A DNA stretch of 64,000 nucleotides, from contig JBEKFP010000001.1 in the NCBI GenBank assembly GCA_050013255.1, positions 224,001 through 288,000 on the forward strand, read 5' to 3'. The number at the start of each line of letters is the position of its first letter. Position 1 is the first letter of the stretch. A program made the position numbers and the translations under genes. The notes beneath the pieces are model-generated. The model was not told where the DNA came from. It saw only the letters and a program-made list of their open reading frames with translations, and ran no database searches. Below, piece by piece: positions 16,438 to 32,519 of the stretch. This DNA comes from Candidatus Bathyarchaeia archaeon. GTDB taxonomy: Archaea; Thermoproteota; Bathyarchaeia; 40CM-2-53-6.

Positions 16438-16499
16438 ACACCTCTTTTTTACCCACGTAACCCGTACCGGTACCCGTAACCTGAGAACGTGTTCCAGCA

Positions 16500-17915
16500 A
16501 TGTCAGAGTTGACATTAACAAAAGCAAGCGAACAGCACATCCGATCCTTAGCGGAATCCAGGCATGAACCCGAATGGTTACGGGAATTTCGCATCAAATC
16601 ACTCAACCTGTTTCGCAAGCTTCCCGTCGAACTCTCAAATTTGTATACGAAGTACGTGGACCTTGCAGGCGTCGACTTCGAATCAGTCAGCTTAGCCCCT
16701 TCAGAGCCGTCCGAGTCTCAAATTGAGGACGTTATGGCTAAGCTGAAGTCTGACAAGGCGATCACGATTTTTCAAATTGAATCGAAAACTTTCCCAGCCG
16801 AGATGCCCGAAGCTCTCCGAAAGGAAGGCGTAGTCTTTGCGGATATCGGGACTGCGATTCGAAGCGAACCAGAATTATTCCGTCGCTATTTCCTGGAGAA
16901 AGCAATTCTTCCTGAGGATGATAAGTTCGCGGCATTGAACAACGCGCTCTTCACTTCAGGGTTCTACTTACATGTCCCGAAGGGACTTGAAGTAATCGTC
17001 CCATTCAGGGTCGTAACCATACTCGACTCGGAGGGGCACGGAGTTTTCGCCCAGAACCTTGTAATGGCGGACAATCGGAGTAAGTTTACGATCCTTGAAG
17101 AGTTGTATTCGACTCGCTCAACAGGCCAGTCGAAGTCTACGTACAGTGGGCTATCTGAAGTCTACTTGCACGAAGGCGCAGAAGTTACGTACGGAAGCAT
17201 AAACAACCTATCCCAAAACGTGAACATATTTTCGAACAAGAAATCAATAGGGGAACGGGATAGCAAGATCGTTTGGTCCACAGGATTGCTCGGGGGCGCC
17301 TATACAAGGTCCCGGCTAGAGAGCGTCATGAAGGAATCCGGTGCGTCTTCTGAGAACGTGGAGGTTGTTTTTGGGGCTGGGACGCAACGCTTCGACACTG
17401 TCTCGAACATTACTCATAGCGGGCCAAATACTAGCGGCCACGCTATTTCAAAAGGAGTAGTCAAAGATAAGGCAAAGGCAATCTTCAAGGGTATGATCAG
17501 AATCGAAGCGAACGCTAAGAACTCGCGGGCCTACCTCGCAGAACACGCCATGATACTCAGCAAAGACGCCCTAGCCGACGCAATCCCCGGCCTCGAGATC
17601 GAAACGAACGATGTGAAGGCCACGCATTCGGCGTCGGTCGCGCAAATCGATGAGGAAGAAATCTTCTACCTAATGGCCAGAGGCCTCTCGAAAGATGAAG
17701 CGAAGAAACTCATCATCGTCGGATTCTTCGAACCACTCGTGGAACGCATTCCAGTTCCCGAAGTTGCAAGACGCATTCGAAGAATCATAGACCTGAAATG
17801 GTCAGGCATCTACGACTTCGCCTCCAGCCTCACGATCCCAGCCTTTGACGACGAGTACTACGAAGAGGGACAGAAGACCCGCGACATATTCGAAGGACAC
17901 TACAAGTACCGTTAG
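16500..17915 (+). CDS. sufD: Fe-S assembly protein SufD
   Basis: SufB paralog; PGLEIETNDVKATHSASV and FYLMARG motifs. Confidence 0.92.
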   Translation: MSELTLTKASEQHIRSLAESRHEPEWLREFRIKSLNLFRKLPVELSNLYTKYVDLAGVDFESVSLAPSEPSESQIEDVMAKLKSDKAITIFQIESKTFPAEMPEALRKEGVVFADIGTAIRSEPELFRRYFLEKAILPEDDKFAALNNALFTSGFYLHVPKGLEVIVPFRVVTILDSEGHGVFAQNLVMADNRSKFTILEELYSTRSTGQSKSTYSGLSEVYLHEGAEVTYGSINNLSQNVNIFSNKKSIGERDSKIVWSTGLLGGAYTRSRLESVMKESGASSENVEVVFGAGTQRFDTVSNITHSGPNTSGHAISKGVVKDKAKAIFKGMIRIEANAKNSRAYLAEHAMILSKDALADAIPGLEIETNDVKATHSASVAQIDEEEIFYLMARGLSKDEAKKLIIVGFFEPLVERIPVPEVARRIRRIIDLKWSGIYDFASSLTIPAFDDEYYEEGQKTRDIFEGHYKYR

Positions 17916-18013: not shown

Positions 18014-18982
18014 TCAATCTTCAAGCTGTGCCCGCAGCAATGATCGCAGTTCGATAGCCTTCGCATTTGGGTTTAGTGTTCGATCCAACACTATTATTCG
18101 GTTGCGGTCGTAGCGACCATTCGCGAGTCTCCTAAAAATAATTGACTCAGCCTTGCCACGACCAATGTAGGTCCCGGCAGAGTAATGCAGACTAAACCCG
18201 ACAAGGACTATGAGAGCATAATGGTAAGAAGTAGGTGCCCCTGCCCAGAGAACGTTGTAGAAAATTCCTAGCAGACTGACCAGTATGTTGAGACCGATAA
18301 TCGATCCCAATACACCGGTTAGAAGAGTTGAGTGAAATGGTCCTGAATTGATGCCGATAATCTTGAATCGCCTGAAATATGGAAGGGCGATCGAAGGGAC
18401 CAGGCCCGAGATCATGGTGATCACAATCAACCCCGGTGTCAGCCGAAGCGAAAATAGAACACCGCTCGCACGCTGAGGAGTAGCCAAGAAGTTCAATGAA
18501 TGCAGTACCAACCGTAGCACACCGGGCCTTGTACTTGCCGTCCTTGACGGGTCAGCACTGTAGATGTCCCATCCTATGGCAATCGACGTGAAGAACAATA
18601 CTAATGGCAGGTAGACTAAGTGAGATTTCGCGATGAGGGCCTTTCCGAGGTGCAAGAATTTTTCATCCTTAGGTCTGATCACCTGCTTCGTCTTAGTGAG
18701 CCTCGCAATCAATCCAGCTATGTTCAACGAGCACATGCCTCCGAGGAGTATGATTGATCCATAACCCAGGCCTACGACCAGAAGCCCTACTATTGACGTA
18801 AAGACTGCGACTGCAAATGGATCGAGACCAACATGGGTAAGCTGGGGGATTGAGAACGTTGAAACCGCAGCGACAGAATACGCAACGAATCCTAGGATCA
18901 GCGGTCCGGCCGCATCGATAACCGCGCCACGTTCGGTGAATTTCCTCATTCCACCAGGATCTCTGACCATCCTTAACCCCAT
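18014..18982 (-). CDS. Multi-pass membrane protein of unknown function
   Basis: 322-aa ORF with about 6-7 hydrophobic segments. Confidence 0.6.
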   Translation of the reverse strand: MGLRMVRDPGGMRKFTERGAVIDAAGPLILGFVAYSVAAVSTFSIPQLTHVGLDPFAVAVFTSIVGLLVVGLGYGSIILLGGMCSLNIAGLIARLTKTKQVIRPKDEKFLHLGKALIAKSHLVYLPLVLFFTSIAIGWDIYSADPSRTASTRPGVLRLVLHSLNFLATPQRASGVLFSLRLTPGLIVITMISGLVPSIALPYFRRFKIIGINSGPFHSTLLTGVLGSIIGLNILVSLLGIFYNVLWAGAPTSYHYALIVLVGFSLHYSAGTYIGRGKAESIIFRRLANGRYDRNRIIVLDRTLNPNAKAIELRSLLRAQLED

Positions 18983-19044: not shown

Positions 19045-19096
19045 GCTATCAATTCAATCAATTGGCAGAGATTCTATAAGGAGGGGAGCAACTGCT
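19045..19096 (+). repeat. ~52-bp direct repeat, copy 1 (att-like left boundary)
   Basis: GCTATCAATTCAATCARTTGGCAGAGATTCTATAAGGA(A)GGGGAGC...GCT, also at 30675-30727. Confidence 0.85.
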
Positions 19097-19179
19097 GATA
19101 TTTGTTACTGGGGAAAACCCATTCGACGGTTTCTTACAGCCCTACCCGTCCGACATCAACTTTACAGGGCCTCACAAGG

Positions 19180-19779
19180 TCAGAACACTCGGGTAATAGG
19201 CTTGAATGCGGGGACCGGCCGCGTCCTCGTCGCGAACATGGCCAACGCGATGCCCCAAGCACGGTCATCATGCGTCCCATCTGGGTGGCTGAATTGAATT
19301 TGACCGGCCTTGGTGAGCTGGAATCGTTCGATGTTCAACTCGTTGGCTAACTCAAGTTGGTAGGGGATCAGGAATCGGTTCTGCTGCATCATCATCTTGA
19401 GGTAGTTCATCACGTCCTGTTTGACCGGTGCGGAGAGGACGATGCCTTCCGCGTTATGGAGCGACTTCCTCGCCTCTTCTACGACGCTCTCTCCGACGCC
19501 CGTTTGGTCGATTAGAATTCTATGAACCGTTTGCAACTTCGCCGTGAGGACTCGAACGAAGCCGACAACGCCCGCCTCACCAGTGTACTCCGTTCCTAGC
19601 GGGAAGACCTTGAGGCCCACTAGGCGGAAGGTGTCCCCGTCTTTTCGGACGAGGGCTAGGACGCTGTAGTCCTGTTTCTTGCCGAGGTCGAGGCCGGCCC
19701 AGTAGTCAGCGCGGGAGGTCTGCTGCAAGTTCCGTCGCCCAGAAGCTTCGCAATTCTCCGCCGAACTCTCGGATTTCAA
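19180..19779 (-). CDS. Terminase large subunit, C-terminal RNase H-like nuclease domain (separate frame)
   Basis: WAGLDLGKKQDYS, IDQTGVGE and HDDRAW motifs; frame overlaps the ATPase ORF by 74 nt. Confidence 0.8.
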   Translation of the reverse strand: MKSESSAENCEASGRRNLQQTSRADYWAGLDLGKKQDYSVLALVRKDGDTFRLVGLKVFPLGTEYTGEAGVVGFVRVLTAKLQTVHRILIDQTGVGESVVEEARKSLHNAEGIVLSAPVKQDVMNYLKMMMQQNRFLIPYQLELANELNIERFQLTKAGQIQFSHPDGTHDDRAWGIALAMFATRTRPVPAFKPITRVF

Positions 19780-20653
19780 GCTCCGCGTCGGTGCATTCCG
19801 TGATTAGCGAGGTGGGGAGCCAGCAATCGTCGTCCTCGCTCCACTCCGCCTCCATCTCACGCCGCCAACGCCAAGGATCGTTCGCCAACTGCTTCCGTAT
19901 CTTCTCCAGGATACCCTTCTTCAGGGGGCCGTTCGGTTCAAGCGCCTGTTCCCACGTGACGTGGTCGCGGCTGAAATCTTCAAACTCCTTATCCTTACAG
20001 ATCCTGTAGAAAACGTGGTCGCGGGACCAGGGTGTCGAGTTGGCTATGAAGAACCCGTTCGTCGTGCCCAACGTGAAAAGAATCGCATCGTAGAGCTCCT
20101 CGTCATCCCGCACGAAGTTGAACTCGGTCGCAAGTACGCCATGCAGTGTCGGGCCCCGTATCGTGTCGGGGTTGCAAGGATAGGCTTCAATGTTAGAACC
20201 GTTAGTTAGCGACACTTTCGTTTTGAGCGGTTTCCGACCGACTAGGATTTCGCGGTAAGGGACACTCCTAGGTAGACGCTGAATGAACGCGTTGATCTTT
20301 CGGATTACGAGTTTGCTTTGGCGAAAGCTTGGACCCACAACTCCTAGTTGGACGCCGTCGTTTTTGACTGCGTACCAGAGCAATTTGCTAGACGCCGAGT
20401 GGTCTTTTCCACTCTGGCGACACCATAGCTGCGCAATGAAATGGGCCGGGTCGTTGAGGAACTTGGCTTGGTAGTTGGTCGGTTCGAAGCCTAGGGCTTC
20501 TTTGCAGAAGGCTACGGGGCCTTTCCCGGCGAATTCCTTGAGCCGTTGGAAGGCGCCTAGGCTTCCCGCTTCAGCTTCCCGCTTGCTTCTGAGCTTCCTT
20601 TGTTCCTCTCTGGCTTGCTGCAATCTCCGCTCTGAATTGCTCATTCGTCTCAC
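19706..20653 (-). CDS. Terminase large subunit, N-terminal ATPase domain
   Basis: YQAKFL, RQSGKD Walker A, NGSNIEA, IRGPT, STP coupling motif, REMEAEW. Confidence 0.85.
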   Translation of the reverse strand: MRRMSNSERRLQQAREEQRKLRSKREAEAGSLGAFQRLKEFAGKGPVAFCKEALGFEPTNYQAKFLNDPAHFIAQLWCRQSGKDHSASSKLLWYAVKNDGVQLGVVGPSFRQSKLVIRKINAFIQRLPRSVPYREILVGRKPLKTKVSLTNGSNIEAYPCNPDTIRGPTLHGVLATEFNFVRDDEELYDAILFTLGTTNGFFIANSTPWSRDHVFYRICKDKEFEDFSRDHVTWEQALEPNGPLKKGILEKIRKQLANDPWRWRREMEAEWSEDDDCWLPTSLITECTDAELEIREFGGELRSFWATELAADLPR

Positions 20654-21203
20654 GAACCTCGTCTAGGAGAACTTGGATGTCGCGGCGGTCGTAACCCTGC
20701 AGAAGCGCCATGTCGGTTCGGACAGTAGTGTTAGCCAAGCGCATCGCTTCCATACGCGCCTTCGCATTCCTAGCTGCCTCCTCACTCTCGCAGAGCTTGA
20801 TAACCGTCTTCAGAATGGCGTCCACAGTGTCGTGAAGATCCAACCGACCCTGCTGTGTATCTTTGCTGGCCTTCAACGGTTGTTTCGTTGGACCAGGCGC
20901 TTCGACCGCTGGCAGTGTCAGGGCAATAGCTTGGAGTTGCAACGTGCGGACGAGGGTGTCTAGGTGGCGGAGGAGGGCTGGGGTGCCTTCCTTTGCTTCA
21001 ACGGACTGTTTCACGTATTCGACTAGCACGAACTTTGCCAACTCGTTGAGGGAAACCCCCCTCGACATGGCCCGGGCTTGTAAACCGCTTCGTATGAGGG
21101 GATCGAGGCGCAAAATGAGGCGAGGGTTACCTTCGTTTGGCACCGTTTGGCACCACCCCTCGAGGGGTGGATCCACCCTCTTAATTGCGAACGGTAGTAG
21201 CAA
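20571..21203 (-). CDS. RHH/Arc-like N-terminus plus helical domain, probable terminase small subunit
   Basis: RLILRLDP...GVSLNEL RHH signature; lies directly upstream of TerL. Confidence 0.5.
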   Translation of the reverse strand: MLLPFAIKRVDPPLEGWCQTVPNEGNPRLILRLDPLIRSGLQARAMSRGVSLNELAKFVLVEYVKQSVEAKEGTPALLRHLDTLVRTLQLQAIALTLPAVEAPGPTKQPLKASKDTQQGRLDLHDTVDAILKTVIKLCESEEAARNAKARMEAMRLANTTVRTDMALLQGYDRRDIQVLLDEVRETNEQFRAEIAASQRGTKEAQKQAGS

Positions 21204-21335
21204 CGTTACAGGTTAGAACATGTAATAGGACATCATAGCTGGCAACAGAGAGTTATGAATTGAGCGAGGGGCCTCTAATCTTCGTTCGATGTGACTAAGT
21301 TGATTTATCTGCACGCCGAAGAAAGAGTCAAGAAT

Positions 21336-21704
21336 CTATGGTCGTCGAGTGACCCTTGAACGTCGAAGCGGCAACAGTGTCTTGAGATCTTCTCCATAGG
21401 GCTGGAGACCCGCGGATTTCCTGTATCCATTCATTAACGCTCTCATCTTTGGGATCATATGAGGAACAAGGCTTACGTGCGCGGAAGTGTCCCGGCCCGT
21501 TCTCTCGCCCTCAACATGCAACGAGGAAGGATTCTCGGTCCTGAGTAATTCATACGCTTCTCGGATCAAGGATCGGTGCTTTGGGGGGTAGCCATGAGGG
21601 AGTAGTTCCATCGGTAGGTGCTTGCCCCCGATGCGATGGTCTTCGAAGAGCTTGTTTATGATGTACCCTTTTGCGTGATTGAGCGTCCCTAGTTTGAACA
21701 CCAT
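21336..21704 (-). CDS. Uncharacterised wHTH-like protein (GGxH...VSL family), paralog of 42095-42376
   Basis: KGYIINKL...IGGKHL...L.HG...HVSL aligns by eye with 42095-42376. Confidence 0.6.
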   Translation of the reverse strand: MVFKLGTLNHAKGYIINKLFEDHRIGGKHLPMELLPHGYPPKHRSLIREAYELLRTENPSSLHVEGERTGRDTSAHVSLVPHMIPKMRALMNGYRKSAGLQPYGEDLKTLLPLRRSRVTRRP

Positions 21705-21805
21705 TGGAATTTATTCCACTATCTTTGGAATTAGCCGCAACGATTATAAAGGGTGACGAAAGATGATTATCATCATGATGACGATAACGTACAGGAGGTA
21801 CACAA

Positions 21806-22105
21806 TTGAAGAGAATTAGTGAAGGTCCTCTTGGAATAGTGTTTGGTGGCCCTGTGGCCCGGGTTCTCGACCAGGCTAGGATTGTAGGCAACATGGAGCA
21901 GACGATTCCTATGCTGGCTCAGTCAACCGGCTTGACATTTAAGACTGTCCAGAAAGCGGTCCTGAGACTGAATCAAATCGGATTGGTGAAGCGCTCAAGA
22001 AAGATCGCAAACGCCCAGACCTACAGATTCGATGTGGAGAACGAGCTGCATGAGCTGCTGGTTTGGACTGAACAGCTTCCCGTCAAACGACTTCGACACC
22101 GATAG
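21806..22105 (+). CDS. Winged-helix DNA-binding protein
   Basis: GGAGGT SD; TIPMLAQSTGLTFKTVQKAVLRL..IGLVKRSRKIANAQTY; resembles 41685-42032. Confidence 0.7.
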   Translation: MKRISEGPLGIVFGGPVARVLDQARIVGNMEQTIPMLAQSTGLTFKTVQKAVLRLNQIGLVKRSRKIANAQTYRFDVENELHELLVWTEQLPVKRLRHR

Positions 22106-22260
22106 GACGACGACTGATGCGAGCGCAATGCGCCAGCTAGGCCACGAACCAAGCCAAAACATCTCGAAAACCGCGCCATAGACCAGGCTAGACTAGGTTC
22201 TAATCCCGTATCCAAAGTATGTTTCGGCAGCACGTCCAGTTTTGCCTTCCGCTATGTTCG

Positions 22261-22346
22261 AACGCAGGTGCACTTCTGCGAGAAAACAGGGTTTTTCCGC
22301 CAGACCGTTTAACCCCCCCCAATAGAACACTAACAATACCGCAACC
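22261..22346 (+). repeat. ~85-bp repeat, copy 1
   Basis: AACGCAGGTGCACTTC...TTCCGCCAGACCGTT...AACAATACC; closely similar copy at 24503-24585. Confidence 0.85.
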
Positions 22347-22470
22347 AGTATTCATTGAGCGGTTGTCCTAAGCAACTGCTTGCCTCTGACGTTTCCTTCT
22401 TGGAAACACGAACATCCGGCGGCATGCTTAATTGAAGACTCCGCTGGAGTTTGAAATCAGTGATTGACCT

Positions 22471-22749
22471 TTGCCAAATCAGGTTCACTGCGCTCATATC
22501 CTCGTGAAGACGGAGAAGGAGGCACAGATGGTCCTGGGTCGGCTGAGTAAGGGAGAGAAGTTCTCCAATATTGCGAAAGAGGTCTCCCGCGACCCGGGTT
22601 CGGGCAAACGTGGAGGAGACCTCGGCTGGTTCACGCGCGGAAAGATGGTGAAGGAGTTCGAGCAGACCGCGTTTGCGCTCCAGAAAGGACAGACCTCACC
22701 CATCGTGAAAACACCATTTGGATACCACATCATTCGCAGACTAGAATAG
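22471..22749 (+). CDS. Parvulin-type peptidyl-prolyl isomerase
   Basis: HILVK, GGDLGWF, MVKEFE, KTPFGYHII motifs. Confidence 0.93.
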   Translation: MPNQVHCAHILVKTEKEAQMVLGRLSKGEKFSNIAKEVSRDPGSGKRGGDLGWFTRGKMVKEFEQTAFALQKGQTSPIVKTPFGYHIIRRLE

Positions 22750-22828
22750 CTCTCACGCCGTTAGGGTTGTTTAGAGCGTTCACCTAGAAGCATGGCGTCT
22801 CATTGGTTCTCTGTCATATTCCCCTTAG

Positions 22829-22871
22829 GAGGTTATGTTAATGAGTAACCTCTGTATCATTAATGATACAG
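22829..22871. promoter_or_regulatory. Tandem inverted repeats at the start of the AbiE-like operon
   Basis: GAGGTTA-N10-TAACCTC (22829-22852) and a perfect 20-bp palindrome CTGTATCATTAATGATACAG (22852-22871) over the ATG. Confidence 0.7.
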
Positions 22872-23654
22872 GCGTTACTTGTGCCAAGAACCCTTGATGC
22901 AGTAAAGGCAGAAAAAGTTGCAAGTGTGGTCAAAAAACTCGGCCGCAGCGCTTCATTTCGAAACATATGGAAGGAAGTTGCGCGTGCAGGGATTTTGACG
23001 CATAACACAACGTTGCGGACGTATCTAGACCTGTTGGTGAAGAGCGACGTACTGAGTGTGCGAAAACAGGACGTAGGATCAGTATACTCAAAGGAGACAT
23101 ACTTTGTCAAGTCGGAAAAACCAAAGGTGTGCGTTGGCCTCGTTATCCTGCAGAAGCACGGCCTCAACTGGGATGTACCCGAAACGGACATCCGCACCAT
23201 TCTCACTGATTTCATCGGCCTAGCACGTTCCAAACCTTTCGAACATGGTTTGATGGCGTCCTTAGAGGACTGCCTGGTGAATGAAGCCTATGCGGATGCA
23301 AAAAAGCAGACGGGAACATTTTCTCTTGTTGCTGCGATGATCTCTACAAGGAAATTGGACCTTCCTTATTTCTTACAGCGGGCTGACGAAAATCACCTAG
23401 GAAGGGCCTTTCGGCTGCTCTTTAGCCGAATACTAGAAACAACATCCTCGAATGTCACCAGCGTCGATGCACCTGCGTTCTTAGCGGTTCGCGAGCGATT
23501 TCTTGGCATCACCAGACAATATTCGCGCTCTGGGTTTTGGAAGCTCGTCGATGGTGAGAAAGGGGTTGGAGTGATTGGACTCAATCTCGTAGAGGATTTG
23601 AGCGAAAGCGACTTGATCCTCACCGCGGCAAAACAGCTTGGAGTAGTGGGTTAA
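22863..23654 (+). CDS. AbiEi-like antitoxin with an N-terminal wHTH
   Basis: wHTH N-terminus, ASLEDCLV segment; 1-nt overlap with the downstream nucleotidyltransferase. Confidence 0.55.
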   Translation: MIQALLVPRTLDAVKAEKVASVVKKLGRSASFRNIWKEVARAGILTHNTTLRTYLDLLVKSDVLSVRKQDVGSVYSKETYFVKSEKPKVCVGLVILQKHGLNWDVPETDIRTILTDFIGLARSKPFEHGLMASLEDCLVNEAYADAKKQTGTFSLVAAMISTRKLDLPYFLQRADENHLGRAFRLLFSRILETTSSNVTSVDAPAFLAVRERFLGITRQYSRSGFWKLVDGEKGVGVIGLNLVEDLSESDLILTAAKQLGVVG

Positions 23655-24340
23655 TGAAAAGGCCTAAAGACATACGCGTTGCACCCATAGAGTGGGTCGA
23701 AATTCTCAAGGTTGCTTATCCGTTTCTTCATGAAAAGGCGGGCGATCTAGTAATCTTCGGATCCCAAGCTCTATCCATTCACATGAAGAACCCGCTGCGA
23801 AGCAAAGATCTAGACATGCTCTCTGCCCAAGTCGGCCCTCTTCAAATGGAGCAGTTGTCAACAAAACTCTCGGATCTTACGAACGTGGAATTGAGGTCAA
23901 TTTCAGTTCAAAGTAGAATGTTTGGCCCAAGGAAGATGACTACATATGCGATTGAGCTTCGGATCAAGGAAAGGCCCTTCTTCGTAGAGGTGTTCGATCG
24001 CATATTGGATGGACGGGCGCCCTCTACCCTGCAGCCCTATGTTGAGCCCGTAAAGCGTTGGAAGTTGGAGGTCTGGGCTCCCGACAGAGAAGCGACCGTC
24101 GCACTTCGTATGGCGTTCAGACAGCCCGAGGGAATAAGTAGGTTCAATGCAACACGCCTAAACGCTTTCATTGACGAGAACCGACGTTCGATACGATTTA
24201 AGCGGGTAAGGTCCATTCTCAAGAACTGGAATATTGAGGACTGGGTAGAGAAGAATCTCATTGATCTGTACCGTAGAAATAGGTTGCGAATAATCGGGGA
24301 CAGCAAAATCATTCCGGGTATTGAGAGGAAACTCGGGTGA
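23654..24340 (+). CDS. AbiEii/MenT-like nucleotidyltransferase toxin
   Basis: IFGSQAL...RSKDLD Pol-beta NTase motif. Confidence 0.65.
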   Translation: MKRPKDIRVAPIEWVEILKVAYPFLHEKAGDLVIFGSQALSIHMKNPLRSKDLDMLSAQVGPLQMEQLSTKLSDLTNVELRSISVQSRMFGPRKMTTYAIELRIKERPFFVEVFDRILDGRAPSTLQPYVEPVKRWKLEVWAPDREATVALRMAFRQPEGISRFNATRLNAFIDENRRSIRFKRVRSILKNWNIEDWVEKNLIDLYRRNRLRIIGDSKIIPGIERKLG

Positions 24341-24502
24341 CATCAAAGGGAGGTGGGCGCATTATTGTTCGATACCGTTGAAGAAAGAACAATCGCACTG
24401 ACTGTGATTATGGGTTAGAGTAGGCAATAGGAAATCCGGTCCCGTGAGGGCGGCAGAAACAAGCATTCGACGAGGCTTCGGGTATTTATGTGGTTGTGCG
24501 GA

Positions 24503-24625
24503 AACGCAGGTGCACTTCCGCTAGAAAACGGGCCTTTTCCGCCAGACCGTTCAACTCCCCATAGAACCATAACAATACCACAACCGCACGACTAACCAAC
24601 AAACCCGAATCCTTAGCCACACGCT
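24503..24625 (+). repeat. ~85-bp repeat, copy 2, with an extension shared with 30992-31015
   Basis: Matches 22261-22346; AACCCGAATCCTYAGCCACACGCT at 24602-24625 recurs at 30992-31015. Confidence 0.85.
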
Positions 24626-24763
24626 TTTTCTTCTGTGTGAGTCTGTTGTTCACCAATAAAGCGAGGCATGGACTAGCCTTGAACCGATCTCAGCTCTGGA
24701 AATCTGGCGTTGTAGCTGCGATCTTCCTGACTACACAATGAAATTTAAACGCAGACGCTCATC

Positions 24764-25834
24764 ATGAATGATGATGCTGAAAGGATGCTAACTCCACTTG
24801 GGGTCAACACTATGGATGAAAGTGAAGTGAAGATTGTGATTGGACAGGCTGTGGGAAGAGCCTACAACTTAGACCGCGCTGAAAAGAGTATTCCTATGCT
24901 TCAACGCCTATTCGAAGAGCCTCAGAGAACCGAATTGGAACGGGCGAGTAGTGAACTGCTTGCTTCGGATAACTTTGATGAGCATACTGTAGCGTTCATA
25001 CTTCAGGCCTCCCTGCAAACCGACCTTCCGAATCCAGCTCCTATCGATTGGCGTGATCTAGCATTGGATATCCGTGAATTGGAAAACACAGTCGCGGATT
25101 ACATGTATCGCCTGGAACGGGAGATGGAAAACAAAGATAAAGTGACTGAATCAGATAAGCCAGCGATGGCCGAAATGCACGATGCCCTGCGTGAATGGGC
25201 CAACTCTCTCGGCAGCGTTGTGTCTCATATGCGCGAGGAGAACTGGATTGAGGCGAAAGTTGAGGTTGACAAAGCATTCTATGCTTCGCAGTCACAAGCA
25301 ATCGACGCATTGAAAACATTCTACGAGAATCCCATTCTAGCGGAAGTTATTGATAGATTTCGTGACAAGACAAAACAATTCCACGAGACAATACTTCGTT
25401 ACCCATCACGAATGATTATTCCCAAAGATCGAGTGAAAACTATCCTTGATGTTCAAGCCGTGTACCTGCGTCTACAGCAACTCTACTTCGAGGATCGAAA
25501 CCGCGAAGCGAACCAAGTTATCGGTTACCCTATAGAGAAACTCGGAGATGCTATTGATTTCCTACTTCAAACTAGCAAGCGTTTAGAGACCGCGAATTAT
25601 GAGATTGGGCTCGGGGTAGGCAATCTAAGAAGGGGGCTACCCAAGATTAACGACCCTGCTCTTAGGAGAGTGTTAGTCGATTTGGCTGATAGGTTGGATA
25701 CAATCTTCTCAAGCCTGCCTGCAGAACCTTGGCCAATGAAGGATTATGGCCATCCTGATGTTGAATCGCGATTTGACTCAGATCCGTATGGCCCGACATA
25801 CAACCATGGAGAACAAACCAAAGACGAAACCTAG
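24764..25834 (+). CDS. Hypothetical acidic alpha-helical protein
   Basis: 356-aa ORF with a TTTAAA box ~20 nt upstream; no recognisable motif. Confidence 0.6.
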   Translation: MNDDAERMLTPLGVNTMDESEVKIVIGQAVGRAYNLDRAEKSIPMLQRLFEEPQRTELERASSELLASDNFDEHTVAFILQASLQTDLPNPAPIDWRDLALDIRELENTVADYMYRLEREMENKDKVTESDKPAMAEMHDALREWANSLGSVVSHMREENWIEAKVEVDKAFYASQSQAIDALKTFYENPILAEVIDRFRDKTKQFHETILRYPSRMIIPKDRVKTILDVQAVYLRLQQLYFEDRNREANQVIGYPIEKLGDAIDFLLQTSKRLETANYEIGLGVGNLRRGLPKINDPALRRVLVDLADRLDTIFSSLPAEPWPMKDYGHPDVESRFDSDPYGPTYNHGEQTKDET

Positions 25835-26054
25835 GTCTAGGGAGGGGATGCGGTTGGCTAATGTTCGCTTTCATCTTCAGCACTGTGGTCATGAATGAAA
25901 GTCGAAGAAGGTTTTTCCTAGAAGCACGAGATGCCCAGATTGCAAATCACGCGAGGTCATTAAGCGGCTTCGGTAGAAAGCACTGTTGCTCTCGCAAAAT
26001 TCGAGATGAAGATTGGCTTTCTGAAAAAAGACTGTTACTGTATGGTGAGACAAG

Positions 26055-29000
26055 TTGCTAGATTGGTCGAAGCTGAAACCATATCACAACAATAAGCATC
26101 TGAGCTTTGAGGAACTCTGTTATCAGACAGCCAAATGTCTTTTTCAGGATCATTTCACTCGCATTGATGATACCGGAGGAGGGGACGGTGTAGAGTTTTA
26201 CAGGGTTCTACCTGAAGGTGATGAATGGGGATGGCAAGCAAAGTTCTACTATCCTCAAGCTCGTCTAAACCTGAGCAATCGCAAAGCTTCCATCGAAGAA
26301 TCCCTAATTTCCTCGTGTAAGAAACATCCACGTCTCAAGAAGTGGATCTTGTGTACGCCGACAAACCTGACTCCTGAAGAGAGCACGTGGTTCAGCCAAG
26401 AACTCAAGAAGAAGATTCCGACCAATATGACGGTCGAACTCGAACATTGGGGTGACGGCGAGTTCAATGACTGGACAAGACATCCGCATTTTGGCGGAAT
26501 TAGGCACTATTTCTTCGGCGAGTTGGAGTTCACAATGGATTGGTTCAAGAAACGCTTCGAAGAGATCTCTCCGATCTACAAAGATAAGTTCAATCCAGCG
26601 TTGCACACACCGACTATTTTCGATAGCCATATTCAGAATACCCTCTGTGAGTTAACTCTTACACAGGAATTGCATGAAATAGTGGAATATATTCGCACTA
26701 AAATCCAAGAGTATGTGAAGACGGTTGACGATCTGAAAAAACCCTTACCTATGCACATTGACTGGGGAACAGTCAAGAGTGTCCTAATCGCTGCTCTCGA
26801 ACCAAATGCGAGTGTTGCCAAAGATGCCTTGGCTAGGCTCAAGAAGGTCTGTGAATTCTTGGACCAGGGTTTGATTGACGAGATAAGGTCCTGGAATCTA
26901 AATGAAACTGAGGATTTTCTAAAGGTGATTGTTCAATCGAGCGAGTCGTGTGAGAAGGCGTGTTCTGGGTTTGACGAAAATGCCCTTACGTACACAGGAG
27001 AGGAAAGAGAAAGAGTCAGAGCTCTTGGCGAAGCATCTCAGATGGTGCGTCAACCGATCAGACTTGCAGCCGTACTCGCCGACAGTTTTTCTGATTTTAC
27101 TCGTGTTCTAAGAGCTGTAACCCGTTCGAACCTGAACATACTCGGAGGTCCAGGAGTTGGCAAAACACACCTTGTTAGTCACGTTGTCGATGAAAGAATA
27201 AGAAGAGAACTGCCGGCTATCTTGGTGCCCGGCAGTAGGTTCATGAGTCAACAACCGATTTCGCAGCAACTACTTCAAATGCTCGACATCCCGGCAAATT
27301 ACAGTTGGGACGATTTCCTTTCTGCTCTAGATTGCTCTGCTCAGGCATACGGAACCAGAGTTCCACTCGTCATAGACGGTCTAAATGAGGCGATAGCTAG
27401 CGGGACTCTGTCAGAGATATGGAAACGCGAATTACCGGTCCTGATCAACCAAATCAAGCAACTCAAGAATATCGTGCTCATAACAACCTGTCGAACGAGT
27501 TATGAGAAAGGCGTATGGCCTGATGATGCTCTTCCAAACAGGCTTTACTTGCGCGGATGGTCTCCAGAAAATCTCGAAGCAGCAATTCACAAGTACTTCG
27601 ATTGGTACAAAATAAGTGGCGACCTGACAACTTCATCTCTTCGTCAGTTTCAGAATCCCATATACCTGAAGATCTTCTGTGAGGCTAACAACGCTGAACG
27701 TCGACAGGAGAAAGAGGTCTATGTCGGAGAAGAGACGCTTTTTGAGGTTTTCAAGGTTTGGTTGAACCAGTGCAGCCAAAGCATATGTGACAGGCTCAAC
27801 TTGCACACCAGCGTCTCAGTGGCTCAAGATTCCATCAGAAAGATCGCCCTTCGAATCTGGGAAAAGCATGTTAGAGAACTCCCCATTGCGGAATTAGCCG
27901 AGATCGTAGACAATACACCTCTGAAGGAGCTGCAGTGGAACCAGTCCTGGACAAAAGCAGTCCTCGACGAGGGGTTACTGGTGTGTCGTGATCTACGTGA
28001 CCAGGGGGAAGTCGCATACTTCACGTATGATTTACTTGGCGGATACGTGATCGCACACAGTCTTGTCGAGAAAGAGAAAAACAGCTTGGACAGTTTCCTG
28101 AAATCTAATGAGGTGACGAACAAACTCTTCTCGGACGACTACAGAAATCTGCATCCCCTGTATGAAGACATTTCGCGATCTCTTGCTGTAGTCTTGCCAG
28201 TAACAACCGGTCGATTTCTGCATCAGGTGAGGGAAGATGAGAAACCATTCAACTTCTCAATCGCGGCTATTTTCGAACTTCCACCAAGCGTTGTTTCGAA
28301 TGGTTGTGTTGAGCTCATCGCGAAGTTGTTCGATGACGAACGGAACAGGAAATATCTAATCAGTCTGGCGGCGTCTACGATGACACAGACGCAACACCCA
28401 CTTAATGCGGTTTTCTGGTCCAAGCGACTGTTGGAACTTCCGATGGCGGAACGCGACACTTGTTGGACGGAATATGTGCGAGAGAACGAGGAACAGCTCC
28501 AAAGTACTGTGGTCCGGTTCGAAAGACTTTGCATGGATAGAGACGCCTCTTCCCCCGTTGCTAAAGAAAGATGTCATCTGATGGCCCAACAGCTAATGTG
28601 GACGTTAACTTCAACGGCGCGAACGCTCCGGGATAAGACGACTCGAGCGCTGTACTGGTATGGACGATGGATGCCTGACCGTTTCTTTGACCTGGTGCTA
28701 TCATCTCTAGAAGTCAATGATCCGTACATCTCTGAGAGAATGCTCGCTGCAACCTATGGTGTGGCTATGGCTCGACAGATCGAGTTTACAGACAATACTT
28801 TCACTACGGTAACATTGCCCAGATATGGGAAAGAGTTGTATGAGGTAATGTTCGGAGAGAAGGCGCCTCATAGAACAACCCACATTCTCATGCGAGACTA
28901 TGCTCGACGCACAATTGAGCTGGCGTTGATTCATCATCCGGACTTGCTAAGCTCAGAACAGCAACAAAGGATTAGACCGCCGTTCTCAGAAGAGGGGATC

Positions 29001-30278
29001 AGAAAGTGGGGAGAAAGAGAAGACAAGAATGACCGAGAATACAGAGACGGAAATGCCCCAATTCATATGGATTTTGGCAATTACACGATGGGGCGTCTGG
29101 TCAAGGACAGAAGTAACTACGACTTTGACAATACTGAGTACAAGACCGTACGCGGAAACATATTTTGGCGAATCTACGATCTTGGATACTCGCTTGAGAG
29201 ATTTGGGGAAGTCGACAGACTCATTAATCGAATGAATTGGGGATACGGTAGAGGCGAGAACGGCGGGAAAATAGATCGCTACGGAAAGAAATACTCATGG
29301 ATAGCATTTTTCGAACTTGCCGGATTGAGGCAGGACAGAAAACTCCTACCGGACGATTATGGTTTTCCACGAATTTCTAGTTGCGATATCGATCCGAGCT
29401 TTCCTAAAGATATCCAACAATATCAAGTTCCGCTAGACGACTTCTTGGAAATCACGTCCATTTCATCTCAGGAATGGATAGAGAAAACAACCGCGCCTAA
29501 CATAAGCTCCGCCCTCATAATCCCGAAGATTCTCGGAAATGATGGTCCATGGGTTTTGCTAGACGGTTTTATCGTGCAAGAGGATTTGGAGGCAAATCGA
29601 GACTGCTTTTTGCACCCGCGATGTTTTCTGATTCAGAATTCCGATTTAGAGGAATTTGTGACTCTGCTCAAGAGAAACTCCCAAGCTTGGATTCCAGACA
29701 TACCAAAAGACTACTACACATATGCAGGCGAAATTCCATGGTGCGACACATTTCCCAACAATGGTCAAGATGAGATGGAACTCACGGTCAAGACAAAGAA
29801 AGAAGTTCGCCCAATGGCGTCGCGTGTAGAATCAGGATTTGTAATCAAAGAACAGGAAGTTGAAGTCCCAAGCGAAGTTCGGAAATTTGCTGTGTTTCTT
29901 CCAGTTAGATACAATTGCTATGAATCTTACCACAGCGAAGTCAATCCCAGTCGTTCCGTACTAGTTCCTGCAAAGGAGATCTCTCAAATCTTTAAGGTAT
30001 GTTCTCAGGCCCAAACTTTCGATATGCATGAGAAAAAAGGAAAAAAAGCGTCGATCACCGTCAGTTGGGGTAAGGAATATCACGATTCCCAGCTAGTCTT
30101 TTTGCGCCAAGATCTGCTGGACGGATATCTGGGAGGATGGAGTATGTCACTAGTATGGGTAATTAGTGGCGAAAGACGACTTTGGTCAGAAGAAAAAGAT
30201 ACTATTGGACTTGGAAGGTCGATCGAGAAGTATGCCCCATTTTTCCATGTCTTGAGCTACACGCCCAAGAAGACGTGA
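26055..30278 (+). CDS. Avs (AVAST)-like antiviral STAND NTPase with an N-terminal PD-(D/E)xK nuclease, Avs2-like
   Basis: FEELC...GDGVE...GWQAK nuclease, GGPGVGKT Walker A, VIDGLNE Walker B, NDPY..ER, RDYAR, RYGKKYSWIA and DIDPS segments. Confidence 0.75.
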   Translation: MLDWSKLKPYHNNKHLSFEELCYQTAKCLFQDHFTRIDDTGGGDGVEFYRVLPEGDEWGWQAKFYYPQARLNLSNRKASIEESLISSCKKHPRLKKWILCTPTNLTPEESTWFSQELKKKIPTNMTVELEHWGDGEFNDWTRHPHFGGIRHYFFGELEFTMDWFKKRFEEISPIYKDKFNPALHTPTIFDSHIQNTLCELTLTQELHEIVEYIRTKIQEYVKTVDDLKKPLPMHIDWGTVKSVLIAALEPNASVAKDALARLKKVCEFLDQGLIDEIRSWNLNETEDFLKVIVQSSESCEKACSGFDENALTYTGEERERVRALGEASQMVRQPIRLAAVLADSFSDFTRVLRAVTRSNLNILGGPGVGKTHLVSHVVDERIRRELPAILVPGSRFMSQQPISQQLLQMLDIPANYSWDDFLSALDCSAQAYGTRVPLVIDGLNEAIASGTLSEIWKRELPVLINQIKQLKNIVLITTCRTSYEKGVWPDDALPNRLYLRGWSPENLEAAIHKYFDWYKISGDLTTSSLRQFQNPIYLKIFCEANNAERRQEKEVYVGEETLFEVFKVWLNQCSQSICDRLNLHTSVSVAQDSIRKIALRIWEKHVRELPIAELAEIVDNTPLKELQWNQSWTKAVLDEGLLVCRDLRDQGEVAYFTYDLLGGYVIAHSLVEKEKNSLDSFLKSNEVTNKLFSDDYRNLHPLYEDISRSLAVVLPVTTGRFLHQVREDEKPFNFSIAAIFELPPSVVSNGCVELIAKLFDDERNRKYLISLAASTMTQTQHPLNAVFWSKRLLELPMAERDTCWTEYVRENEEQLQSTVVRFERLCMDRDASSPVAKERCHLMAQQLMWTLTSTARTLRDKTTRALYWYGRWMPDRFFDLVLSSLEVNDPYISERMLAATYGVAMARQIEFTDNTFTTVTLPRYGKELYEVMFGEKAPHRTTHILMRDYARRTIELALIHHPDLLSSEQQQRIRPPFSEEGIRKWGEREDKNDREYRDGNAPIHMDFGNYTMGRLVKDRSNYDFDNTEYKTVRGNIFWRIYDLGYSLERFGEVDRLINRMNWGYGRGENGGKIDRYGKKYSWIAFFELAGLRQDRKLLPDDYGFPRISSCDIDPSFPKDIQQYQVPLDDFLEITSISSQEWIEKTTAPNISSALIIPKILGNDGPWVLLDGFIVQEDLEANRDCFLHPRCFLIQNSDLEEFVTLLKRNSQAWIPDIPKDYYTYAGEIPWCDTFPNNGQDEMELTVKTKKEVRPMASRVESGFVIKEQEVEVPSEVRKFAVFLPVRYNCYESYHSEVNPSRSVLVPAKEISQIFKVCSQAQTFDMHEKKGKKASITVSWGKEYHDSQLVFLRQDLLDGYLGGWSMSLVWVISGERRLWSEEKDTIGLGRSIEKYAPFFHVLSYTPKKT

Positions 30279-30422
30279 TTGAATTCCAAGGGACACTGGG
30301 TTCTGCTAGGAATACGCGAAATATTCCTTGGACAGAACCTATGATGCCTGCACGTGGACTTCCACGTCTAAACCATCGATTACACGTGGCCATCAGAAAA
30401 TGAGCCTTATGTAATATCCCCA

Positions 30423-30452
30423 GTCAGCTGGTGCGGGCAATGGAAATTGAAC
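30423..30452 (-). repeat. tRNA 3'-end-derived repeat (T-loop, acceptor, CCA plus GCTGAC)
   Basis: Reverse complement GTTCAATT TCCAT TGCCCGC A CCA GCTGAC. Confidence 0.7.
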
Positions 30453-30590
30453 TTAGCCCATCAGTCCTACTGACAGGAGAAGTTTAGTCTAAGATATGCG
30501 CTATGTAAGTTCATGAGCCATTTGTCTGATTAGAGGAGCTCGCGAGAAGGCGAACATCCTGTGTTCGCGGAGCCGAGCACAACAGCTATG

Positions 30591-30615
30591 GAGGGTTCGA
30601 ATCCCACCCATCGCA
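30591..30615 (+). pseudogene. tRNA 3' fragment (T arm plus acceptor strand)
   Basis: GAGGG TTCGAAT CCCAC CCATCGC A; no matching 5' half. Confidence 0.55.
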
Positions 30616-30674
30616 AGAACGATGCGTCCCCCCTTGTAGGGGGGCGGTGCTAGAAAAATAGGAACCACGTAGGC

Positions 30675-30727
30675 GCTATCAATTCAATCAGTTGGCAGAG
30701 ATTCTATAAGGAAGGGGAGCGACCGCT
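30675..30727 (+). repeat. ~52-bp direct repeat, copy 2 (contains the promoter of the zinc-ribbon gene)
   Basis: Matches 19045-19096 with 3 substitutions and a 1-nt indel. Confidence 0.85.
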
Positions 30728-30735
30728 ATCATTGA

Positions 30736-30930
30736 ATGGTCATGCAAGCTGGTCCGCAAAGGCCGGGCATTGTGTTTTGCAGCAACTGTGGAATGAACAA
30801 TCCGACGGGGAACAAGTACTGTTACGGTTGCGGTAAGTCCCTTTTCAGCATAACCTGTTCCTACTGCAGTACCATCAATCCCCAGTACGCCCACTTCTGT
30901 GGGTCGTGTGGTCGAGCCCTAGCCCGCTAG
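30736..30930 (+). CDS. Double zinc-ribbon protein
   Basis: Four CxxC knuckles (CSNCG, CYGCG, CSYC, CGSCG). Confidence 0.75.
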   Translation: MVMQAGPQRPGIVFCSNCGMNNPTGNKYCYGCGKSLFSITCSYCSTINPQYAHFCGSCGRALAR

Positions 30931-30983
30931 ATTGATCAAGCGCCCCCTTTCAACCGGTCTCGATAATGTTCCCGAAACTTCCT
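30930..30983 (-). repeat. Duplicated msrA 3' end (54 bp)
   Basis: 48/54 identical to 31953-32006; encodes RKFREHYRDRLKGGA* versus RKFREHYRERLKVGN*. Confidence 0.9.
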
Positions 30984-31110
30984 TACCGACGAACCCGAAT
31001 CCTCAGCCACACGCTCTAGAGCATTGAAATCGGGCCCAATGGCTTCGGAGTAGCCTCGGCGAGTGTTCAACTCCCCACACCAATAATCCTGAACGAGCAA
31101 CGCTTATAGG

Positions 31111-31132
31111 GCGTAAACAAGATCGTTTACGC
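31111..31132. promoter_or_regulatory. Toxin-antitoxin operator inverted repeat
   Basis: GCGTAAAC-N6-GTTTACGC between the CTTATA box and the ATG. Confidence 0.65.
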
Positions 31133-31135
31133 GTC

Positions 31136-31363
31136 ATGACAACAGTTCAGGTTCAGGTCAGGGTGCCGAGGAAAGTGGTCCAAGAAATAGATAGGTGGAT
31201 AGCAGAAGGTCGGTTTGCTAACAGAAGCGAGGCCATCAAGACGGTCCTAACACTTTACGAGGAAAGAGAGAACACGAGAAAGTTCTACCAGACCATCCTC
31301 AAGCGCAGTGAGCAAGCGAAGAAGAAACCTGACTCACTAATTCCCCTCGAAGAGATTTCTTGA
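31136..31363 (+). CDS. RHH (CopG/ParD-like) antitoxin
   Basis: VQVRVP...IDRWIAEGRFANRSEAIK. Confidence 0.85.
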   Translation: MTTVQVQVRVPRKVVQEIDRWIAEGRFANRSEAIKTVLTLYEERENTRKFYQTILKRSEQAKKKPDSLIPLEEIS

Positions 31364-31629
31364 CCTATCAGGTCCTCCTTCACCCCAAATCAGCCAAGTT
31401 CCTCTCGGGATTGGCGGAACCTTTGCGAACGAGAATCAAAGACGCGTTGAGAGAATTGCGGGATTCTCCTGAAACGAAGGGTGAACGCCTATCTCCCTCT
31501 GCGTTCTGGCGAATCAGAGTCGGCGACTACAGAGGGATCTATGAGATAGATAGAAAAGACAAGAGAGTAATTGTCCTGCACATTGGACACAGAGGCAGGG
31601 TATACGATGACTTCAGTCGTCTCCTCTGA
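31360..31629 (+). CDS. RelE/ParE family toxin
   Basis: WRIRVGDYRGIYEID...IGHRGRVY. Confidence 0.92.
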   Translation: MTYQVLLHPKSAKFLSGLAEPLRTRIKDALRELRDSPETKGERLSPSAFWRIRVGDYRGIYEIDRKDKRVIVLHIGHRGRVYDDFSRLL

Positions 31630-31670
31630 TCTGTTCGGAAGTTCGGGAGTGCGATAAGATGAGCTCAGAT

Positions 31671-31696
31671 GGTTCGTGGGTTCGAATCCCAACCGG
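31671..31696 (+). pseudogene. tRNA T-arm fragment
   Basis: GGTTCGTGGG TTCGAAT CCCA ACCGG. Confidence 0.45.
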
Positions 31697-31746
31697 AAAC
31701 TCTCACCAGAACAGTATCGAATCTCGACTTCCCATGAAAGTGAAAT

Positions 31747-31989
31747 GTGGCCAGGCGAGTTGAGTTGAAGAAGAAGCGGTTCTTCGTTGCAATCGATTTC
31801 TCGAGGTACAAGGGCAGATACGTTGCCGTGGTCGGAAAGAGAGTCGTTGCAAGCGGAACCAACGCGAAACAAGTGTGGTTAGAGGCCAAAAGGAAGAATC
31901 CTAAAGCTCGACCCGAGCTTCACAAGGTCCCGAAGGACGAGACGCTCGTGTTGATTGATCAATTGCCTACTTTCAACCGTTCTCGGTAA
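31747..31989 (+). CDS. DUF5678-like small protein
   Basis: YKGRYVAVVGKRVVASG motif; 3' end runs into the msrA repeat. Confidence 0.65.
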   Translation: MARRVELKKKRFFVAIDFSRYKGRYVAVVGKRVVASGTNAKQVWLEAKRKNPKARPELHKVPKDETLVLIDQLPTFNRSR

Positions 31990-32519
31990 TGTTCCCGAAA
32001 CTTCCTAACTTTGGGCGCAATTACAATTTGGCAGTATTGTTGCCTTGGGTTATTCTCGAAGTATTTCTGGTGGTAGTCCTCGGCCTTGTAGAAGGCTTTC
32101 AACGGTTCGACTTGCGTAACGATCGGCGCATCCCAAATCCCGGCCGCCGTGATTCCCTTGATCACATGTTCGGCGACCACCCTCTGTTCGCTATTATGGT
32201 AGAAAATGACGGAACGGTACTGAGTGCCCACGTCAGCCCCCTGCCGGTTTAGAGTTGTAGGGTCGTGTACGGTGAAGAAGACCTCGAGGATTTCCTTGTA
32301 TGAAATTACCTCAGGATTAAAGGTCACTTGCGCTACTTCAGCGTGCCCAGTTCTCCCCGTGCAGACCTGTTCGTAGCTTGGATTTGCAATCGTCCCCCCA
32401 GAATATCCGGGCTCTACCTTCACGACGCCCTTCAAGCCACTGAAAACTGCTTCCGTACACCAGAAACAGCCGCCCCCGAGAGTAGCTACTTCATCACTCA
32501 TGCTTTCCTTTTGGGGCAA
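31959..32519 (-). CDS. msrA: Peptide methionine sulfoxide reductase A
   Basis: GGGCFWC, GHAE, HDPT, AEDYHQ motifs. Confidence 0.96.
   Translation of the reverse strand: MPQKESMSDEVATLGGGCFWCTEAVFSGLKGVVKVEPGYSGGTIANPSYEQVCTGRTGHAEVAQVTFNPEVISYKEILEVFFTVHDPTTLNRQGADVGTQYRSVIFYHNSEQRVVAEHVIKGITAAGIWDAPIVTQVEPLKAFYKAEDYHQKYFENNPRQQYCQIVIAPKVRKFREHYRERLKVGN

Follow-up and report, generated by a model that had tools for sequence, protein, structure and literature searches.

An archaeal Avs2 sensor and a two-part viral-type terminase as probably unrelated residents of a mosaic region in a Bathyarchaeia chromosome

AVAST type 2 (Avs2) proteins such as EcAvs2 and KpAvs2 carry an effector, a STAND NTPase and a sensor in one protein of about 1,400 amino acids (aa). 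EcAvs2 is activated strongly by the large-terminase (TerL) ATPase domain on its own, and its sensor contacts terminase-bound ATP and its Mg hydration shell via a bridging ATP (PMC13601566). Here, we describe an Avs2 gene that lies close to a terminase encoded in two parts, within a 64,000-nucleotide stretch of a Bathyarchaeia chromosome (the window; G000:C1:224001-288000, from a genome of 2.46 Mb in three contigs). Positions follow window numbering unless a contig is named. The close relatives of the source genome, G000, are soil and peat Bathyarchaeia metagenome-assembled genomes (MAGs), and the two genes sit in a variable stretch flanked by sufB/sufD (15034-17915) and msrA (31959-32519). The initial annotation had proposed that acquisition of the sensor selected for breakage of the resident terminase. 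We find instead that the two are probably unrelated residents of a mosaic hotspot, and that the state of the terminase probably predates, and is independent of, Avs2. The more interesting result is a clade-wide, selected two-part terminase in which two motif residues are swapped, together with its survival as an orphan cassette.

The G000 protein shares the single-protein build of EcAvs2 and KpAvs2, is homologous to EcAvs2 (PDB 9O4E) across the NTPase and helical region, and is matched by the hidden Markov models of the family. It differs from both in its archaeal (Bathyarchaeia) host and in its low identity to characterised members. Most Avs2 homologues use an Mrr-like nuclease effector, as does the one in G000 (PMC13601566). 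In contrast, the effector of EcAvs2 itself is different and non-enzymatic. Resemblance to EcAvs4 and SeAvs3, in a comparison said to go back to Gao et al. in 2022, is confined to the N-terminal nuclease module, and a nuclease activated by tetramerisation may be the common logic. Unlike in EcAvs4, the NTPase and sensor regions type as Avs2; with only the effector module matching Avs4, there is no sign of portal sensing.

For the terminase, a close known counterpart is gp17 of phage T4, in which single substitutions at either of the two positions swapped here are lethal. The ATPase of the G000 terminase aligns with gp17 (PDB 3EZK, 2O0H, 3CPE) over Walker A, Walker B and motif III, and both have an RNase H-like nuclease. 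Unlike gp17, the G000 terminase is encoded by two open reading frames (ORFs); Asp stands in place of the Thr that follows the Walker A Lys, and Thr in place of the Walker B Asp. Phage-inducible chromosomal islands (PICIs) and capsid-forming PICIs (cf-PICIs) are phage satellites with packaging genes of their own and accessory cargo, but without a full set of virion genes. The G000 region likewise holds chromosomal terminase genes and accessory cargo without a full virion set, although this is an analogy only: no integrase, helper virus, pac site or induction was seen there. Tailed viruses and proviruses of Bathyarchaeia ('Fuxiviridae', 'Kunpengviridae'; 10.1101/2023.08.24.554615) carry relatives of the TerL in head-tail modules, both in genomes and in IMG/VR, whereas G000 has the terminase cassette alone. 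Among the terms searched for in that preprint, terminase gave a single mention and 'split' gave none. Our literature search returned nothing relevant on split archaeal terminases.

Judged by its sequence, the sensor ORF is a genuine Avs2. It matches six PADLOC Avs2 models (best E 2.6e-179) and no other PADLOC family, with PDLC02162 spanning residues 2-1382 over profile positions 3-1349 of 1379. The sole solved structure matched is EcAvs2 bound to phage terminase (PDB 9O4E; E 2.6e-38, residues 357-1015). An Mrr-like PD-(D/E)xK nuclease occupies the N-terminus (approximately residues 1-110), where residues 4-109 match the Avs4 nuclease module (NCBIfam, E 2.3e-6) and D44, E47 and Q61-A62-K63 are invariant across 49 homologues. 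It is followed by a STAND NTPase with intact Walker A (GGPGVGKT, residues 364-371) and Walker B (LVIDGLNE), and by a helical repeat region and C-terminal sensor (approximately residues 700-1407), which completes the tripartite Avs build of effector, STAND NTPase and long sensor. Against two homologues, dN/dS (the ratio of non-synonymous to synonymous divergence) is 0.15-0.20. The typing upheld the annotated Avs2 subtype, as opposed to Avs4 or a non-Avs protein. The annotated layout was equally accurate: a nuclease-STAND-sensor protein of 1407 aa does lie 5.4 kb from the split TerL (5402 bases separate the TerL start, 20653, from the Avs2 start, 26055), and an archaeal Avs2 and a terminase are co-resident in one locus. 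A clear archaeal Avs2 with a nuclease effector is found alongside three resident terminase genes, in one genome in which self-tolerance of terminase sensors becomes testable.

The two halves of the split TerL are overlapping minus-strand ORFs, with the nuclease ORF in the +1 frame, and both Pfam and PHROGs place them as the halves of a T4-type TerL. They carry an ATPase domain (Pfam PF03237, 31.1 bits against a cut-off of 22) and an RNase H-like nuclease domain (PF17289, 37.1 bits against a cut-off of 22.6). The ATPase ORF reads RQSGKD at Walker A (D84, codon 20404-20402), VLATE at Walker B (T176, codon 20128-20126; E177) and STPW at motif III, and stops at a TGA at 19708-19706. At the matching sites, two paralogues in the same genome read RQVGKT and ILDE, and an alignment of the family profile to T4-type gp17 structures (E 8.6e-16) puts the GKD/TE residues at the gp17 GKT and DE. 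In the split TerL, neither motif takes the canonical form (GK[ST] at Walker A, hhhhDE at Walker B), but the Walker A Lys and the catalytic Glu are retained, and the nuclease ORF keeps the RNase H-like acidic residues (GLDLGKK, IDQTGVGE, THDD). There are no stops or indels apart from the lineage-typical split. Independent contigs from the peat metagenome runs X3 and X14 are identical over 19498-21150 and 21169-30777 with zero indels, which shows that the split is no assembly error. The two further TerLs of G000 are unsplit (429 and 450 aa), read GRQVGKT and ILDE, and are 34-38% identical to the split TerL.

The split form is shared well beyond this genome. The approximately 100 best homologues of the TerL ATPase ORF share 60-93% identity with it; each is about 300 aa in length, and all end at a common point. 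Orthologues in the genomes G013, G004 and G014 (92%, 91% and 77% identical, respectively) each occupy an open frame of 308-318 aa, and the junction CTCCCGCGC-TGA-CTACTGGG is identical in all three. No Avs2 was found in any of these three genomes, all of which have the split GKD/ATE TerL. In an ATPase tree of 105 sequences (68 GKD+TE, from metagenomic protein clusters, and 37 GK[ST]+DE), GKD+TE arises through one change and forms one clade of 68 (SH-aLRT 99), with mixed states in 0 of 105. The Walker A Lys, the Walker B Glu and many other ATPase positions are invariant. On the same tree, the split or fused state changes at least 10 times. From alignment and tree, the change from GKT...DE to GKD...TE is best described as a reciprocal swap of Mg-contacting residues, clade-wide and of one origin. 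This reveals a virus lineage with a terminase in two parts and two Mg-site residues exchanged, which would be a natural compensatory pair.

Swap-type terminases are also found in viral settings. The 27-kb IMG/VR contig L156 carries the swap-type TerL ATPase, the nuclease, a portal, a 548-aa protein, capsid and adaptor genes, and L158, L163 and G014 hold the swap-type split TerL in similar morphogenesis modules. In a sister type that is split but keeps canonical motifs (L035, L166, L167), portal, capsid, adaptor, neck, tail terminator, tail tube and tape-measure genes come after the terminase. More distant, fused TerL relatives are found in tail-bearing modules across Bathyarchaeia; the scan of species-representative genomes gave 194 loci, almost all from that class.

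In the chromosome, the terminase genes form a compact cassette (Table 1). The G004 region is syntenic with that of G000 (sufB, sufD, a homologue of the ORF at 18014, the TerL cassette and msrA), and the cassettes share 91.2% DNA identity (blastn; L028 9049-11104). The G013 cassette (L027 11732-9665) is 90.6% identical by blastn, and its flanks differ. Nei-Gojobori estimates among G000, G013 and G004 gave a dN/dS of 0.13-0.15 for the TerL ATPase ORF, 0.10-0.17 for the nuclease ORF and 0.11-0.20 for the upstream gene, at a synonymous divergence (dS) of 0.22-0.38. For the G000-G004 pair, dS is 0.34 for sufB and 0.22 for msrA, near that of the cassette. A low dN/dS, combined with a dS near that of the flanking genes, fits vertical descent of an already capsid-less, selected cassette. 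The TerL had been annotated as split, Walker-B-degenerate and disabled; the split and the VLATE motif are real, but the data do not support the disablement, given that both halves have a dN/dS of 0.10-0.17 and that this is the clade-wide form. That host chromosomes keep, under selection, a terminase cassette without capsid genes hints that archaea put packaging enzymes to satellite-like or domesticated use.

The upstream gene, which overlaps the TerL start, is kept beside TerL in G004, G013, G014 and L034 (cluster 41) and has no Pfam, PHROG or NCBIfam match; from position alone it is a candidate small terminase (TerS). Its likelier start is an ATG at 21068, which gives 165 aa, and its first 40 listed codons lie inside a dispersed repeat. 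This repeat, with an internal palindrome (GGGTGGATCCACCC...GGGGTGG), is found at 21060-21182 (-) just upstream of the cassette, where it inflates the listed start of the gene. It has approximately 16 copies over all three contigs (81-100% identity) and shows a depth spike in all four metagenome runs.

Table 1 Features of the variable stretch, in window positions.
Feature	Position	Strand	Size and basis
TerL nuclease ORF	19180-19779	-	199 aa as listed; Pfam Terminase_6C; alignment to intact paralogues; junction comparison
TerL ATPase ORF	19706-20653	-	315 aa as listed; Pfam Terminase_6N and PHROG TerL families
Upstream gene, overlaps TerL start	20571-21203	-	210 aa as listed; position only, without family match
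Three-gene terminase cassette (TerS-like, ATPase, nuclease)	19174-21230	-	2.06 kb; blastn; ends identical in 3 genomes
Insertion relative to G004 and G013	21231-24412		3.2 kb; blastn block structure; between cassette and Avs2 segment
G000-specific segment with ORF 24764-25834 and Avs2	24592-31015		bounded by 34-nucleotide direct repeat; GC 46.8%
Avs2 gene	26055-30278	+	1407 aa; PADLOC, NCBIfam and PDB 9O4E matches
D3 direct repeat, left copy	19045-19102	+	about 42-58 nucleotides; 95% identity to right copy
D3 direct repeat, right copy	30675-30728	+	repeat search

How the nuclease half is made can be weighed from the junction, where the ATPase ORF ends ...DLPR-TGA and the nuclease runs on in the +1 frame as ...SRADYWAGLDLGKK. 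Separate translation appears roughly twice as likely, on sequence grounds, as a programmed +1 ribosomal frameshift at the stop (CGC-U-GAC) that would join the two ORFs into a full-length TerL, which we regard as a real but lesser possibility. Dropping the first stop base would give ...LPR-DYWAGLDLGK, a product collinear with the unsplit TerLs. The 20-nucleotide (nt) junction is identical even though the proteins are only 77-92% identical, and the stop-embedded arrangement persists in L156 and L157 with other bases. However, the junction has no recognised slippery motif, and its conservation is expected regardless because two frames overlap there. Sister lineages are moreover split in other frames and places. 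L165 and L034 have a conserved TTG-(A-A-T-I-P-E-L) 1 nt and 2 nt, respectively, past the stop, in differing frames; a GTG overlaps the ATPase stop in L035; and approximately 200 nt of unrelated sequence lies between the ATPase stop and the nuclease ORF in L158, L159 and L164. These start codons and spacers of the sister types support separate initiation. In G000, a TTG at about 19728 is a possible start of the nuclease ORF. The spacer in L158, L159 and L164, all from IMG/VR, might have come from a small insertion, or might itself be an intervening element.

Avs2 is uncommon among Bathyarchaeia. More than 450 full-length homologues are known at 44-74% identity, Chloroflexota and cyanobacterial proteins among them. 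No match was found among 40 relatives, and Avs2 is present in only 3 of 401 Bathyarchaeia genomes, a count that is the same with the protein query and with the NCBIfam Avs2 profile. A metagenome scan with the protein gave one close relative (L114, 68%), all others being 26-36% identical. The nearest archaeal copy, in G277 (L111, G277 C100 519-4709), has 78% aa identity, and its DNA homology is confined to 26044-30289, that is, to the Avs2 gene alone. GC content is 46.3% for Avs2, 56.1% for the terminase cassette and 50.3% for the genome. A 34-nt direct repeat, D4 (24592-24625, 30982-31015), flanks a 6.4-kb segment with Avs2 and ORF 24764-25834. The low GC content, the separate 34-nt repeats, the gene-limited homology to G277 and the rarity in the class make Avs2 look like a typical single-gene sensor that moved horizontally, and like a recent import separate from the terminase cassette. 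The ORFs beside it (22863-23654, 23654-24340, 24764-25834) have no PADLOC, Pfam or NCBIfam family, and the 356-aa product of ORF 24764-25834 had no usable match in the protein atlas. A tblastn search of 45 Avs2-bearing loci, with Bathyarchaeia TerLs and the ORFs of the island as queries, turned up neither a TerL nor a homologue of ORF 24764-25834, a weak negative given that unrelated bacterial TerLs would be missed. The L111 copy has one in-frame TGA, at codon 572; either the gene is broken there, or the fragmented MAG contains a sequencing error.

The region around both genes is a patchwork. From the sufBD side, it runs through ORF 18014-18982 (-), the TerL nuclease ORF, the TerL ATPase ORF, the overlapping upstream gene and small ORFs, then ORFs 22863-23654, 23654-24340 and 24764-25834 (+), Avs2 and, last, a stretch of tRNA-like fragments with a toxin-antitoxin pair. 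The terminase cassette and the Avs2 segment lie between the D3 repeats, 11.6 kb in all, and the genome has only these two D3 copies; in G004, too, this pair encloses the cassette region (L028 4856-4908, 13944-14001). The insertion between cassette and Avs2 segment has about 20 bases common to both junctions and holds no defence or Pfam family, and the C-terminus of its ORF 23654-24340 is 60% identical to a gene downstream of the intact TerL 'B'. A further repeat, D1, is found at 22261-22318 and 24503-24560. Segment 24499-30588 stands in place of a different 2.6 kb in G004, and the neighbours of the cassette in G004 and G013 are metabolic (radical SAM enzyme, permease, glyoxalase, ABC transporter). 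On the msrA side, the last 57 nt of msrA (repeat D2) are duplicated at 30930-30986 and enclose a 1-kb toxin-antitoxin cassette (within 30930-32009; RHH antitoxin at 31136-31363, RelE-like toxin at 31360-31629). Contigs from runs X2 and X14 join 30933 to 31975 and skip this cassette exactly, which indicates that a cassette-free form coexists in peat populations. No integrase was found on the contig of the window, and no capsid or portal gene; what remains are direct repeats and end fragments of tRNA or msrA, short of the integrase, att repeats and virion module that define an integrated provirus or integrative element. D1 and D4 were considered as decayed msrA 3' ends and rejected, given that only the 57-nt D2 matches msrA. 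RNA run X20 contained a fraction of 0.06 of the words of the terminase cassette, which has no bearing on expression.

The explanation that we favour is that two unrelated residents would share a repeat-bounded variable region between sufBD and msrA in the chromosome of a peat-soil Bathyarchaeia. Avs2 would be an antiviral STAND sensor that works alone, from a single gene, and that was gained by horizontal transfer. Homology to EcAvs2 suggests that its C-terminal sensor would bind the TerL ATPase domain of an infecting tailed virus; the STAND NTPase may then tetramerise, the Mrr-like nuclease cut DNA and the infection be aborted. The split GKD...TE TerL would be the normal form in one lineage of Bathyarchaeia tailed viruses, its ATPase and nuclease most probably made as separate products through coupled initiation, with fusion through a +1 shift at the stop codon the less likely route. 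Only the 2.06-kb cassette would have survived, by vertical inheritance since before the divergence of G000 and G004 and under purifying selection. Such selection implies that the cassette still has some role, which we would guess to be packaging-related, for example riding in the capsids of a related infecting virus.

Several points weigh against this explanation. The NCBIfam Avs2 model (NF041813) matches the protein with E 2.9e-111 and 373 bits against an equivalog cut-off of 1000. That cut-off is reached by 0 of 401 Bathyarchaeia genomes and by no control genome and, as the model is narrow, we read the score as that of a divergent Avs2 subfamily, not as exclusion from the family. The large-terminase ATPase domain is the presumed ligand by family membership, and Avs2 proteins can also have non-terminase triggers (PMC13601566, PMC11564622). 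Avs2 and the cassette could be cargo of one 11.6-kb D3-bounded element and hence not strictly independent. Part of the selection signal of the cassette could stem from transfer between genomes, with the G013 cassette at another locus. Finally, no portal or capsid gene was found in G000 with the queries used, which leaves the selection on the cassette without an explanation. A complex prediction of Avs2 residues 700-1407 with TerL ATPase residues 40-300, made from alignments, scored 0.00 without controls and has no bearing either way.

Three alternatives remain improbable in our view. In the first, the 11.6 kb from D3 to D3 would be a capsid-less, satellite-like element packaged by a helper virus, with Avs2 as cargo against competitors and with its own atypical TerL tolerated owing to the altered ATP/Mg site and the separate ATPase subunit. 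The D3 repeats do bracket the cassette and differing cargo in G000 and G004, the 2.06-kb cassette is mobile as one discrete unit, orphan TerL cassettes occur commonly among Bathyarchaeia, and the swap alters the site (ATP, Mg hydration shell) contacted by EcAvs2 (PMC13601566). However, G004 and G013 carry ordinary metabolic genes as cargo instead of defence genes, the analysis identified no integrase, helper virus or pac site, and Avs2 is both rare in the class and set apart by internal repeat boundaries of its own and a different GC content.

Alternatively, the cassette might be a neutral, decaying provirus remnant without present function, with Avs2 nearby by chance in an integration hotspot. 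With the queries used, neither the neighbourhood nor the genome yielded portal, capsid or integrase genes, which would suit such a remnant, as would the patchwork of insertions, repeat-marked junctions, tRNA fragments and toxin-antitoxin cassette. We give it little credence, given that all three cassette genes have a dN/dS of 0.10-0.20 at housekeeping-like synonymous divergence, and that the cassette has kept the Walker A Lys, the Walker B Glu and the nuclease acidic residues without stops or indels beyond the split.

A third, joint reading, in our opinion also a long shot, takes the swap and the free ATPase subunit as a working motor with a re-wired Mg/ATP site, and the orphan cassettes as kept to hitch-hike in, or to poison the motors of, related incoming viruses. 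With a site altered in this way, TerL might escape the co-resident Avs2, given that EcAvs2 reads the ATP on the terminase together with its Mg hydration shell; this would explain their coexistence.

Least credible by far is the annotated proposal that an acquired Avs2 selected for an inactivated resident terminase, through frameshift and Walker B loss, to avoid autoimmunity: Avs2 proteins do sense TerL (PMC13601566), and Avs2 and the non-canonical two-ORF TerL do lie 5.4 kb apart, but G004, G013 and G014, in which no Avs2 was found, have the same split and motifs, as do the 68 metagenomic clusters and the viral contigs, both TerL halves are under purifying selection, two intact canonical TerLs persist in G000, and splitting off the nuclease gives no protection, given that the ATPase domain alone triggers EcAvs2 (PMC13601566). 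Immune-driven inactivation of a self-ligand would have been a rare natural example, and the data do not show it. The annotation's other option, that the terminase fragments tune the sensor, found no support here. The two genes are best read as unrelated residents of one hotspot.

Several minor observations concern the terminases and the region. The unsplit orphan TerL cassettes of G000 are found at C1 1298353-1299642 (+) and 398464-399816 (-); they are 80% identical to each other, and each has two small conserved ORFs upstream, without virion genes. The cassette at 398464-399816 adjoins a peptide ABC transporter, homologues of which lie beside the split cassette of G013, and this shared neighbourhood suggests a second preferred landing site. 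Directly downstream of the fused TerL, 52 of 80 loci (Bathyarchaeia; for example, L039 and L052) encode a conserved protein of approximately 470 aa, which is an ABC/AAA-type ATPase at its N-terminus and matches GNAT weakly. A portal would be expected at that place, and the putative portal and capsid genes are found upstream instead.

Within the variable stretch, ORF 18014-18982 (322 aa, -) has no family match and shares 95% DNA identity with its G004 counterpart, with a dS of 0.07 and a dN/dS of 0.47. Compared with its neighbours (dS 0.22-0.38), it is much younger and under weaker constraint, and may therefore have been exchanged recently or be non-coding; a paralogue at C1 1261678-1262472 is 37% identical. 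Fragments resembling a tRNA T-arm (GGGTTCGAATCCCACCC) at 30593-30609 and 31678-31694 are probably integration relics, and ARAGORN found no tRNA in the window. A CxxC-rich ORF of 64 aa (30736-30930, +), of the double zinc-ribbon type, lies beside the right D3 repeat and is conserved there in G004 too. Outside the variable stretch, a ferredoxin-domain protein (12365-13960, +) carries an intein that interrupts it and that contains a LAGLIDADG homing endonuclease (matches to Hint, Intein_splicing and LAGLIDADG_3).

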